The notes: a model not told the origin generated them from the letters alone. Positions 43,724 to 47,949 are shown, counted from the first letter of the stretch. The stretch is 64,000 nt of DNA from an uncultured Actinomycetes bacterium (GCA_963784675.1 CAWASE010000001.1:28449-92448); one strand, 5' to 3'. Made by a program: numbers and translations.

Positions 43724-46224
43724 GACCGGTCCGGACCGGGCTGCTGGTCGCGGCGGCGCTGGTGGCCGCGCTGCTGGTGCCGACGCCGGCGCAGGCGGCT
43801 GCGCCGGACGTCGTGGTCAGCGCGCACCGCGGCGGTGCGGCGTATGCCCCGGAGAACACGATGGCGGCCTTCCGGAACGCCGTCGCGCTCGGGGTGGACC
43901 AGCTGGAGGCCGACGTGCAGCTGACGGCGGACGGTCGGCTGGTGGTGCTGCACGACGACACCCTGGACCGCACCACGGACTGCACCGGGACGGCGATCAG
44001 CGCGACCTTCGCCCAGATCCAGCGCTGCGACGCCGGCTTCTGGTGGAGCCCGGGCCCCTCGCTGACGGTGCGCACGACGCAGGCACCCCACCCCCTCCGC
44101 GGCACCGGCGTGCGGGTGCCGGCGGTGGAAGAGCTGCTCGCGCTCGGCCGCAGCAGCCCGCGGCAGAGCCTGTCCATCGAGGTGAAGAACATCCCCGGGG
44201 AGGCCAACTTCGACCCGACCGGCGTCCGCGTCGCCACGGCGCTCGTCGCCGCCGTCGACGCGAGCGGCATCGACAAGGAGCGGGTGCTCGTGCAGTCGTT
44301 CTTCCCGACCAGCCTGGAGGCCGTCAAGCGGCTGGACCCGACGCTGCGGACCCAGTTCCTGACCTCCTCGGGCACCGGGCAGACGGCCGCGCAGAACCTG
44401 TCGTACGCGACCGCCCGGGGGATCGACGTCGTCGCGCCGGACGATGCCGCGCCGGACCTGAACCCCGCCCTGGTGCAGGCAGCGCGCGCCGCCGGGCGCG
44501 CAGTGTTCCTCTACACGCCCGACCGGCGGGCGGCGCTGCAGCGCGGGCTCGGCCTGGGCGTCGACGGCCTGATCACCGACCGGCCCGCCTGCCTGCTCGC
44601 GCTGCTCGGCCGCCCGGTGCCGCCCGGCCGCACGGGGGGCGTCGCGGCCTGCGAGTCCGAGCGGGTCGGGGCCGGCCCGGTCGACCGGCCTGCACCGGAG
44701 ACCTGCACGGCCCTGCGGCCGCCCCGCTGGGCGCCCACCGTCGCCGCGCCGGACCCCCGCGGCGACCTGCGCGTCGTCGGGCTGCAGTACAAGCAGGACG
44801 TCGACAACGTCACCGACTACGCGGCCTTCCGCACCGCGATGCGGTGCCTGGTCGAGGACCACGTCGCGGGCCTGCGCGACGGACGCCCCGTGCTCGCGGT
44901 CTTCAACGAGGATGTCGGGCTCATGACGGTGGCGACCGGCTCGCGAGGTGCCAGCGTGCGGGCGCAGGCGGCGTCACCGGCCCGGGCGCCGGCCGGCACC
45001 GCCGCACCGGTCGGCGCCGCCGCTGCGCTGGGACAGCTCAACGCCGCCTACGCGCCGCAGGCCGCGGCCTACCAGGCCCGGTTCGGACCGGTCGACCCGC
45101 GCAAGCAGGTGCTGCTGGCCGCCACCGACACCTTCGCCCGGGCCTTCAGCGAGACCTTCAGCGGGATCGCCCGCGACTACGGCATCTACGTCGTCGCCGG
45201 CAACAACCAGCCCCGCTTCCGCAGCTCGACCGACCCCGCCGAGATCGCGCTGTTCGCCGACCCTGACCTGCCCAGCCCGCAGCAGGCGTACGTCGCCGTC
45301 GACGGCCGGGTGCCCAACACCGCCTACGTCTGGGGCCCGACCGACGTCGACCCGACCGCGGTCGCCCCCGAGCGCAACCTGCTGCACCGCAACGAGAAGG
45401 TGCCGCTCACCCAGACCGAGCTCGACCTGCTCGCCCTGGACGCCGGACCCTCCACCGGTCCCGCCGCGGTCGCCAACCTGCGTGGGCCGGTCGTCGCCGG
45501 GCACCGGCTGGGCATCGCGACGTCGCTGCCGGCGTTCGTCTACGGCCACGGCTTCGGCGGGCGTCCCGCGGCGGACCCGTGCGCCGACACCTCGCTCACC
45601 TACATGGCCTGCCTGGACGCGCTCGGCACCGACGTCGTCGTGCAGGACGAAGCCAACCCGGGCCCGTGGGCGGCCTACAACCCGGGCGGCTGGCAGCCGC
45701 TGGAGTGGATGAGCTCGACCTGGCGCGCGGTCGCCGACCCCAGCGTGCACTTCCGCTACAACATCACCCCGCACCTGGTCGGCAACCTGCTGGACCTGCC
45801 CTTCGACGGTCAGTCCGCCATCACCGCGCGCGCGGCCGGGCAGCCCTCGCGGCACTACGTCGGCACCACCGAACGCCTCGATGCACGGGATCCCGCCGAG
45901 TACCAGGTGTACGCCGGCGGCAAGCCGCACTTCCTCGCGCTGGCACCGTGGGTGGTCCCCGACGCCCCTCGCACCGACCTGGAAGCGGTGGCCCGGCGGC
46001 TGGCCGGGGGCAGCGGCGACCCGATCGAGGACGGATACCTGCAGACCGCCGTCGCCGCCGACCTGCTGCCCGTCCCCGCTGCGGTCCGGACTCCCACGGC
46101 TCCGTCCGGCGCCGCACCCCCTGCTTCCCCCGGCCGGCTGCCAGCCACCGGCGGTCAGGCACCCTGGGCCGCGCTGCTGCTGCTCGTCCTGCTGGCCCGA
46201 CGAAGGAACCGACGATGGACCTGA
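43720..46224 (+). CDS. Cell-wall-anchored glycerophosphodiester phosphodiesterase fused to a ~530-aa domain of uncertain (carbon-nitrogen-hydrolase-like?) type; LPATG sorting signal
   Basis: GTG 43720 overlaps the upstream stop (GTGA). Sec signal VRPVRTGLLVAAALVAALLVPTPAQA. GDPD motifs VSAHRGGAAYAPENTMAAF, EADVQLTADGRLVVLHDDTLDRTT. C-terminus is LPATG + GQAPWAALLLLVLLA + RRRNRRWT. Confidence 0.7.
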   Translation: MRPVRTGLLVAAALVAALLVPTPAQAAAPDVVVSAHRGGAAYAPENTMAAFRNAVALGVDQLEADVQLTADGRLVVLHDDTLDRTTDCTGTAISATFAQIQRCDAGFWWSPGPSLTVRTTQAPHPLRGTGVRVPAVEELLALGRSSPRQSLSIEVKNIPGEANFDPTGVRVATALVAAVDASGIDKERVLVQSFFPTSLEAVKRLDPTLRTQFLTSSGTGQTAAQNLSYATARGIDVVAPDDAAPDLNPALVQAARAAGRAVFLYTPDRRAALQRGLGLGVDGLITDRPACLLALLGRPVPPGRTGGVAACESERVGAGPVDRPAPETCTALRPPRWAPTVAAPDPRGDLRVVGLQYKQDVDNVTDYAAFRTAMRCLVEDHVAGLRDGRPVLAVFNEDVGLMTVATGSRGASVRAQAASPARAPAGTAAPVGAAAALGQLNAAYAPQAAAYQARFGPVDPRKQVLLAATDTFARAFSETFSGIARDYGIYVVAGNNQPRFRSSTDPAEIALFADPDLPSPQQAYVAVDGRVPNTAYVWGPTDVDPTAVAPERNLLHRNEKVPLTQTELDLLALDAGPSTGPAAVANLRGPVVAGHRLGIATSLPAFVYGHGFGGRPAADPCADTSLTYMACLDALGTDVVVQDEANPGPWAAYNPGGWQPLEWMSSTWRAVADPSVHFRYNITPHLVGNLLDLPFDGQSAITARAAGQPSRHYVGTTERLDARDPAEYQVYAGGKPHFLALAPWVVPDAPRTDLEAVARRLAGGSGDPIEDGYLQTAVAADLLPVPAAVRTPTAPSGAAPPASPGRLPATGGQAPWAALLLLVLLARRRNRRWT

Positions 46225-47949
46225 ACCTCACCCGCCGTCGCCTGCTCGGCGGAGCCGCCGCGCTCGGTGCGGCCACGCTGCTGCCTGCCGAACCCGTCTG
46301 GGCGGCTCCCGCCCGCGGGCGGCTGAGCACGCAGGTCGTGGTCGTGGGCGCCGGCATGGCCGGGCTGACCGCCGCCCGCGACCTGCTCGACCAGGGCGTC
46401 GACGTGCTGCTGCTGGAGGCCCGCGACCGGGTCGGCGGCCGCCTGCTCAACCACGACATCGGTGGTGGTCACGTCGTCGAGGTCGGCGGCCAGTGGCTCG
46501 GTCCGGCGGACGACGTGCCGGCGGCCGACCCCACGCAGGGCGACGTGCGGGGGCAGTCGGCGGCCGAGGCGGTGCTGCAGCGCGTCGGTCTGCGCCGCTT
46601 CCCCACCTACAACGACGGCGCCTACGTCGACTACCGCAGCGACCTGCCGGTCCAGCGCTCGACCTACACCGGGCGCATCCCCACCTCCGACCCGGCAGGT
46701 GTCGCCGAGGCGGCGAAGGTGCTCGCCCAGCTGGACGCGATGTGCAAGACGGTGCCGCTGGACGCCCCGTGGACGGCGCCGCGCGCGTTCGCCTGGGACG
46801 GCATGACCGTCCAGTCGTTCCTGGACTTCGGCGACACCGCGCTGGACGAGAACCGGCTGCCGGGCACCTTCGGCAACGGGGTGCTCTCGCCGGGCGGGCG
46901 GCACCTGGTGTCGCTGGCGATCGAGTCGGTCTTCTCGGTCGAGCCGCGCGACCTGTCGCTGCTGCACGCGCTGTTCTACCTGCACGCCGCCGGCAGCATC
47001 GAGTCGCTCATCAACACCGCCGGGGGCGCGCAGCAGGACCGCGTCGTCGGCGGCACGCAGCTGCTCGCGATCCGCACGGCGGCGGCGCTGGGCGACCGGG
47101 TCCGGCTCTCCTCGCCGGTGCGCCGGGTGGACCAGACCGGCTCGCGCGTGGTCGTCTCCGGTGACGGCTTCGAGGTCACTGCCGACCGGCTCGTCATGGC
47201 GCTCCCGCCGACGCTGTGCGGGCGCATCGACTGGGTGCCCGCGATGCCGGCACTGCGCGACCAGCTGACCCAGCGGATGCCGATGGGCACGGTGCTGAAG
47301 GTGCAGTGCGTCTACGACGAGCCGTTCTGGCGCGCCGACGGGCTCGCCGGGCAGACCACCAGCGACACCGGCCCGGTGAAGCTGACCTTCGACAACAGCC
47401 CGCCGGACGGCTCGGTGGGAGTGCTGATGGGCTTCATCGAGGCCTCCGACGGACGCGCCGCGCTGCGCCTGTCGGCGACCGACCGACGCCAGGGCGTCGT
47501 CGACTCCTTCGCCCGCTACTTCGGCGGGAAGGCCCGTGCCGTCGAGCAGTACGTCGAGATGTCGCTGGTCGGCCGAGCCGTACAGCCGCGGGTGCTACGC
47601 GGGTGTGTTCGGGCCGGGGGCGTGGAGCGACTACGGGCCCGAGCTGCGCGCGCCGGTCGGGCGCGTCCACTGGGCCGGCACCGAGACCGCCACGGTGTGG
47701 AACGGCTACATCGACGGCGCCATCCGCTCGGGACAGCGGGCGGCCGCTGAGGTCGTGGCTGCGCGGGGCAAGGGGTCGGCGCCGGTCGCGGCGCCCGCGG
47801 TGACCGGTCCGGTCGTGTCCGGACCCGCCGATCCCCCAGGCGGTGCGCTGGCCGCCACCGGCGCCAGCACCGCGGTCGAGGTCGCCGGCGCTGCCGCGCT
47901 GACCGCTGCCGCCGGCCTGGCCCACCGGCGCCGCAGCGCCCGCGACTGA
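46215..47949 (+). pseudogene. Tat-exported flavin-containing amine oxidase with an LAATG sorting signal; +1 frameshift at 47565
   Basis: MDLNLTRRRLLGGAAALGAATLL (twin-arginine) and VVVVGAGMAGLTAARDLLDQGVDVLLLEARDRVGGR (FAD fold). Reads to ...EQYVEMS, then the conserved WSAEPYSRGCYAGVFGPGAW...[23 protein letters not shown] continues in the next frame to 47949. Length is 1735 nt (3n+1). The tail is LAATG + hydrophobic stretch + HRRRSARD. Confidence 0.75.

Follow-up and report, generated by a model that had tools for sequence, protein, structure and literature searches.

A flavin amine oxidase with a twin-arginine signal and a sortase-type tail as a candidate wall-displayed holo-enzyme in an uncultured actinomycete

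Can a cofactor-carrying enzyme be exported in the folded state, through the twin-arginine translocation (Tat) pathway, and then be attached to the cell wall by a sortase? The question is raised by a gene at 46215-47949 (+) in a 64,000-nucleotide stretch of DNA from an uncultured Actinomycetes bacterium (GCA_963784675.1, CAWASE010000001.1:28449-92448; this whole stretch is the window, and positions are counted from its first letter). The initial annotation of the window described the gene product as joining a twin-arginine signal, a flavin adenine dinucleotide (FAD) fold and a C-terminal LAATG-type sorting signal, with a frame change within the gene. Our analysis confirms this description overall and supports the interpretation placed on it: we consider it fairly probable that the gene encodes a cofactor-carrying flavin amine oxidase that is exported by Tat and anchored to the wall by a sortase, and that the break in its reading frame is an assembly error. 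The annotation also regarded Tat export followed by wall anchoring as unusual, a view that has to be narrowed. According to Gallego-Parrilla, Severi, Chandra and Palmer (Microbiology, 2024; PMC10924467), natural Tat-dependent sortase substrates were undescribed until their own study, in which reporter assays validated four that carry Tat signals; the authors suggested that actinobacteria contain such proteins in abundance. What is new at this locus is a cofactor-bearing case.

Open reading frame listing and translation reveal one gene split over two frames. The first frame opens at the ATG at 46215, about 8 nt downstream of a Shine-Dalgarno-like GAAGGA, and runs to 47564 (MDLNLTRRRLLGG...YVEMS; it also reads MDLNLTRRRLLGGAAALGAATLLPAEPVWAAPARG...VVVVGAGMAGLTAARDL...YVEMS). 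The +1 frame takes over at 47566 (WSAEPYSRGCY...LAATGASTAVEVAGAAALTAAAGLAHRRRSARD) and contains, in order, WSAEPYSRGCYAG, a Pro/Ala/Gly linker, LAATG-ASTAVEVAGAAALTAAAGLA-HRRRSARD and the stop codon at 47947-47949. The protein obtained by reading through the break matches PF01593 (Amino_oxidase) at 225.4 bits (cut-off 19.8; 2.2e-66) over residues 48–514, and the alignment spans model positions 1–442 of 443 straight across the break, which therefore sits inside the catalytic domain (46356..47757, +). The database gene call is the frameshifted 511-residue form (P0004), which ends at 47750.

The encoded protein is an FAD-dependent amine oxidase of the monoamine/putrescine oxidase type. Its dinucleotide-binding beta-alpha-beta unit (VVVVGAGMAGLTAARDL...EARDRVGGR; 46332..46442, +) is recognized by both NAD_binding_8 and Amino_oxidase matches, and the glycines of the GxGxxG motif (VVVVGAGMAGL in the window protein) are invariant in our alignment (A2). 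Just 3′ of the break, the Cys of an SRGCY motif (47593..47595, +) is nearly invariant (C460 in the same alignment) and is a candidate site of covalent FAD attachment—presumably as 8-alpha-S-cysteinyl FAD, an assumption we make from work on monoamine oxidases (MAO) A and B and on the A394C variant of putrescine oxidase. By sequence, the best relative in the PDB is 8p84, a monoamine oxidase from a Thermoanaerobacterales bacterium (E 9e-112 with the window protein), followed by MAO-A/B and putrescine oxidase as the closest solved relatives; 9h5p is the putrescine complex of the 8p84 enzyme.

An AlphaFold model agrees with this assignment. The model was built with 41 aligned sequences for an intact orthologue, P0003, that is 84% identical to the window protein, and it reached a mean pLDDT of 85 and a pTM of 0.83. 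Foldseek aligned it with 8p84 at a TM score of 0.95 and 43% identity, with MAO-A/B and putrescine oxidase next and with putrescine oxidase A394C entries among the matches. The fold containing EARDRVGGR that had been proposed at the outset is thus borne out by the full-length domain match, the invariant glycines and the structural model. In the model, residues 30–516 form a globular domain of high confidence, and a signal-peptide helix (residues 7–23, low confidence) lies outside the fold. Residues 517–542, which include LAATG, are disordered (pLDDT < 50 in the linker), and residues 543–567 form a separate C-terminal helix. Solved chains and tail-less homologues stop where the linker begins. 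As modeled, then, the tail is separate from the fold, such separation being the criterion by which PMC10924467 excluded false positives.

The N-terminus points to export by Tat. Residues 1–30 (MDLNLTRRRLLGGAAALGAATLLPAEPVWA; 46215..46304, +) form a twin-arginine signal peptide, likely cut after VWA, with the motif T-R-R-R-L-L at 46230-46247 (+). TIGR01409 recognizes it above threshold (19.1 bits, cut-off 16.7), as the sixth-ranking match in a six-frame scan of the genome. The Arg pair R7/R8 is invariant in 41/41 aligned homologues and is present in 113 of 121 family sequences, the majority of the remainder being N-terminally truncated. The genome encodes TatC (PF00902, 1.1e-63) on contig C19. 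The twin-arginine signal TRRRLLGG of the initial annotation is therefore upheld by the profile match and by the conservation of the Arg pair.

We weighed whether the protein might instead leave through Sec, the Arg pair being a by-product of high G+C content and the apoprotein being exported unfolded and flavinylated outside the cell. High-GC genomes do prefer Arg over Lys in signal-peptide n-regions, a caveat raised in PMC10924467, and the Pfam TAT_signal profile (PF10518) scores the oxidase at 16.6 bits, below its cut-off of 22.7. Against this, the Arg pair stands in a T-R-R-x-L-L context and is invariant across actinobacterial and proteobacterial homologues, including lipoproteins of the lower-GC Solimonas; the h-region is rich in Gly and Ala, a typical trait of Tat signals; and the TIGR01409 match is absent from those other L[PA]xTG proteins of the genome that carry Sec-type signals. 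Moreover, we know of no established route for loading FAD outside the cell. Sec export is, on these grounds, very improbable, and Tat remains the route we favor.

At the other end of the protein, the tail has the order of a sorting signal: a Pro/Ala/Gly-rich linker (ARGKGSAPVAAPAVTGPVVSGPADPPGGA; 47761..47847, +), whose sequence varies among orthologues; the pentapeptide LAATG (47848..47862, +); and an Ala-rich, weakly hydrophobic segment (ASTAVEVAGAAALTAAAGLA) of 20 residues, mostly Ala, that contains a conserved Glu and is followed by HRRRSARD (47863..47946, +). When 23 orthologue tails were aligned on the pentapeptide, all conformed, with L, T and G invariant and position 2 being P in 12 and A in 11. 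The consensus beyond it is (A/L/V)-(D/E)-T-A-(V/A)-E-(A/V)-A-G-A-A-A-L-(A/T)-A-A-A-A-A, then Arg-rich. Thus the pentapeptide, stretch and HRRR end reported initially are all present, in an arrangement that relatives have kept. The same cannot be said of the doubt that the annotation cast on function because of the Glu in the hydrophobic stretch: this residue is kept in 15 of the 23 tails, and its conservation rules it out as a sign of decay. Profile searches for the two signals, which the annotation had suggested, gave a divided answer, with TIGR01409 above its cut-off and both Pfam TAT_signal and the LPXTG-anchor profile TIGR01167 below theirs. The latter gives the oxidase 14.1 bits, just under the cut-off of 15.9; the LPATG tail of the gene product encoded immediately upstream scores lower still (10.8 bits).

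The genome (4.04 Mb in 25 contigs, 94% complete) encodes three sortases: a class E enzyme (NF033747, 224.6 bits, cut-off 160), a class-E-like enzyme (124.9 bits, below the cut-off of 160) and a class F enzyme (173.6 bits, cut-off 166). The initial remark that LAXTG motifs are linked to class E sortases fits a genome that encodes one. By a pattern screen, about 40 proteins of the genome have an LPATG- or LAATG-type signal at their C-terminal end; the count is approximate, as the screen missed two Tat-type proteins that were caught by a hidden Markov model (HMM) scan for Tat signals.

These tail data bear on a second alternative, in which Tat would insert the C-terminal segment permanently into the membrane and the L[PA]xTG motif would stay uncut. 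Tat-dependent C-tail proteins without sortase motifs exist: the small subunits of Escherichia coli hydrogenase and formate dehydrogenase have a Tat-integrated C-terminal membrane anchor, and a protein encoded at C14:230890 in the present genome (described below) may be another. The TIGR01167 score just short of threshold also leans this way. However, the invariance of L, T and G in 23/23 tails despite the variable linker is not what an uncut motif would suggest, and the same motif is found in some 40 further sorting signals of this genome, which encodes three sortases. Furthermore, large hydrophobic residues make up 19% of the oxidase tail, the lowest fraction among 38 sorting tails of the genome, which would make a very weak anchor and suits transient retention better. 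We therefore judge permanent tail anchoring unlikely and retain cleavage by a sortase as the preferred reading.

If the protein has this architecture in relatives, is it also made in this strain? The assembly lacks an uninterrupted reading frame, having a single-base break at 47565. At the break (47556..47568, +), four intact orthologues read GAG ATG (TCC or AGC) TGG, i.e., YVEMSW, and the window is one base longer than these between the Ser codon at 47562-47564 and the Trp codon at 47566-47568, so that the frame change reported in the initial annotation is located where it had been placed. Aligned with 8p84, the read-through protein is gap-free at this site. A programmed frameshift was considered and is ruled out, as 4/4 compared orthologues are in frame here.

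To place the break in its genomic context, abrupt coding-frame switches were counted with a detector based on codon-position GC. The count for this genome came to 180 (4.46 per 100 kb), which is a lower bound, as the detector missed the oxidase break itself. Fetched loci from metagenome-assembled genomes (MAGs) with MFD names had a rate of 4.32 per 100 kb, and those from the other assemblies one of 0.24 per 100 kb, 18 times lower than in this genome. We take the MFD genomes to be long-read assemblies. For work on this genome in general, a single frameshift is best presumed to be an assembly indel unless reads show otherwise. An orthologue in a sister genome (L025, 5700-6100) carries a different break, within its signal peptide; its database product (P0005) consequently begins past the RR motif and falsely seems to lack a signal.

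A genuine pseudogene would leave this strain with a product of 511 residues, devoid of the anchor and of the C-terminal part that binds FAD, and the architecture would then be functional in relatives only. The break is, after all, present in the assembly, it lies outside any long homopolymer, and the gene is accessory, being found in 3 of the 19 species genomes searched in the genus (the window's own counted). Yet the part 3′ of the break is undecayed: it has a GC3 of 0.90, all family motifs and an intact sorting signal, and by eye its identity to P0003 resembles that of the rest of the gene. Likewise, at least 180 similar breaks in this genome, at a rate shared with the MFD MAGs and not with the other assemblies, and the differently placed break of the L025 orthologue argue against a genuine lesion. 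Together, the genome-wide break rate, the L025 break and the intact 3′ part make an indel in the assembly or long-read consensus most likely, with a true pseudogene correspondingly unlikely.

How widely the architecture is shared can be judged from the family, which a search of a collection of 5.8 billion proteins showed to be large. The closest group (63–84% identical to the window protein) comes from uncultured Mycobacteriales/Frankiales MAGs, and its members bear both an RR signal and a C-terminal sorting signal. The comparison of orthologues that the initial annotation had proposed thus favors the proposal at both ends, L[PA]xTG being kept in 23 C-termini and RR in all 41 aligned sequences. 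In a maximum-likelihood tree of the core domain, the sortase-tailed forms make up one clade, with one independent tailed lineage elsewhere (L041, an Actinomycetota MAG). Solimonas/Nevskiaceae homologues group in a clade as Tat lipoproteins, in which L-x-G-C comes after RR, and the other actinobacterial members have RR and no anchor. As RR runs across the tree and anchors differ, Tat export would be ancestral in the family and the anchor its variable part.

Several observations nevertheless weigh against a wall-anchored Tat substrate encoded by an intact gene. Two of the signal profiles (PF10518 and TIGR01167) fall below their cut-offs. The C-terminal segment, mostly Ala and with an acidic residue, may be too weakly hydrophobic to span the membrane. 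Four members of the sortase-tailed clade (P0006, P0021, P0022 and P0024) lack the tail, so that anchoring appears dispensable, and the gene itself is accessory within the genus. Finally, as the break is not in a long homopolymer, its origin as an error is likely only in a statistical sense.

Is the oxidase alone in its genome in combining the two signals? L[PA]xTG tails occur on 5 of the 12 best TIGR01409 matches in the six-frame scan. The other four are two purple-acid-phosphatase-like metallophosphoesterases (C1:96412 and C14:5250, the second itself frameshifted), a Metallophos protein (C16:98462) and an 866-residue protein (C19:740834) in which a PHP-like HxH motif was seen by eye; Pfam and TIGR01409 lend support to this set. 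All five are likely cofactor enzymes. The five Tat-type tails have the smallest shares of large hydrophobic residues, 0.19–0.33 vs. a median of 0.45 in 35 others (Mann-Whitney p = 2e-4), a comparison drawn from one genome and a hand-made set. A further Tat-signal protein of about 527 residues, encoded at C14:230890, has a PHP-like motif by eye and a hydrophobic C-tail with a His-rich end (HTDHSHGDHLHEHAHP); no LPXTG motif was found in this tail, and the protein is a candidate Tat tail-anchored protein.

The oxidase gene is the last of three genes that overlap start to stop (43028-43723, 43720-46224 and 46215-47949). Its immediate neighbor (43720..46224, +), which overlaps the oxidase start by 10 nt, encodes a fusion with a Sec-type signal, a GDPD domain (4e-48), a domain of about 450 residues (window 44695-46089) and an LPATG sorting signal. 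The 450-residue domain has no sequence match in Pfam, NCBIfam or the PDB; its model (pTM 0.90) returned nitrilase-superfamily amidases as all of the top 50 Foldseek matches. It has an invariant Glu (FNED) and an invariant Lys (N-x-K-V-P-L-T), and T-S-L-P occupies the place expected for the nucleophile Cys.

This domain adjoins an oxidase homologue in about 40 fetched loci from Actinomycetota and Pseudomonadota, including Solimonas (about 60% identity of the 450-residue domain) and Solirubrobacterales, and the anchors of the two partners co-vary. Both are sortase-tailed in the window and in the loci L005, L025 and L007, both are lipoproteins in Solimonas, and both are unanchored in the Frankiaceae loci examined; L006 is an exception, where the oxidase has a sorting signal and the partner has none. 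Overall, this co-variation argues for functional anchors and for joint action of the oxidase and its partner outside the cell.

Other features of the locus were also recorded. In more distant uncultured Actinomycetes MAGs (L027/L037), a GDPD/nitrilase-fold fusion with 40% identity over its whole length lies on the opposite strand (~8400-10700, minus strand), about 1 kb downstream of the oxidase homologue. The first gene of the overlapping set (window 43028-43723), whose last 4 nt lie within the fusion gene, encodes a small secreted protein that no Pfam model matches. Of the fetched loci, L025, the closest relative, was the only one to yield a homologue (43% identity). A scan of 42700-48200 for consensus promoters and terminators gave no matches, such a scan being uninformative for a high-GC actinobacterium.

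How does this protein compare with systems already known? Like the substrates of PMC10924467, it has an RR signal at its N-terminus and, at its C-terminus, a motif of the L[PA]xTG type with a hydrophobic helix and a basic end. The host is likewise a high-GC actinobacterium that encodes class E/F sortases, and the tail of the window protein is Ala/Gly-rich, as are the validated tails of that study. The protein differs in being a flavoenzyme and in the conserved acidic residue of its tail. The examples in that study are peptidases, an HtaA-domain protein and the SCO1860 family, none with a predicted cofactor; its authors had also searched beyond Fe-S proteins for tail-anchored Tat substrates that contain a cofactor, and they rejected every FAD candidate. 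The window protein is thus a new, cofactor-bearing member of the Tat-dependent sortase substrates described in 2024, and our literature searches found no such cofactor-bearing substrate reported after PMC10924467. Nor did the searches bring up a relevant report on the 8p84 enzyme or on a flavin amine oxidase that is exported by Tat or anchored to the wall.

Among amine oxidases, the protein shares its fold, GxGxxG and SxGCY Cys with 8p84/9h5p, MAO-A/B and the Rhodococcus putrescine oxidase 2yg3. The crystallized 8p84 chain aligns with the catalytic domain only, whereas the window protein adds the Tat and sorting signals. Human MAO-A and MAO-B are held in the mitochondrial outer membrane by a C-terminal transmembrane anchor, and unlike the window protein they have no export signal and no sortase motif. 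The Solimonas/Nevskiaceae lipoprotein oxidases belong to the same family (52–57% identity) and have the RR signal and an upstream nitrilase-fold partner gene, yet their anchor is a lipobox Cys at the N-terminus and not a sortase signal at the C-terminus.

The pathway that we propose for the oxidase is as follows. In the cytoplasm the protein would fold and take up FAD, probably covalently at the conserved Cys, after which the Tat translocase would export it via the twin-arginine signal. The Ala-rich, weakly hydrophobic segment and the Arg-rich tail would retain it transiently in the membrane until a housekeeping sortase, most likely the class E enzyme, cuts L-A-A-T|G and joins the Thr to peptidoglycan, leaving an active flavoenzyme on the cell surface. 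There it may work with its wall-anchored GDPD/nitrilase-fold partner: hydrolysis of an amide or phosphodiester would release an amine, and oxidation of this amine would yield an aldehyde, ammonium and H2O2, so that the role of the pair might be nitrogen scavenging.

A broader proposition can be put forward more tentatively, as one that we think possible and somewhat less likely true than false. Tat followed by sortase may be a regular route in this lineage for the wall display of cofactor-loaded enzymes, using distinct Ala-rich and barely hydrophobic tails (acidic in the oxidase clade) that would spare the proteins capture by Sec and the signal recognition particle (SRP) yet permit their hand-over from Tat to sortase; on this view, the oxidase and its partner would work in series outside the cell and convert amines bound in amides or phosphodiesters to ammonium.

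No new mechanism is claimed here; what the sequences of this family offer is a conserved, testable case of a holo-flavoenzyme apparently routed from Tat to a sortase. Having found no cofactor case, PMC10924467 gave no answer as to why its substrates rely on Tat. A flavoenzyme conserved with this architecture would supply the textbook reason—cofactor insertion before export—and the metallophosphoesterases of the same genome suggest the same, together pointing to a general Gram-positive way of displaying holo-enzymes on the wall. The family further provides a natural comparison of three anchoring solutions (none, lipobox and sortase signal), while the low hydrophobicity of the tails suggests a testable rule for passage from Tat to sortase that could aid the engineered surface display of folded enzymes.

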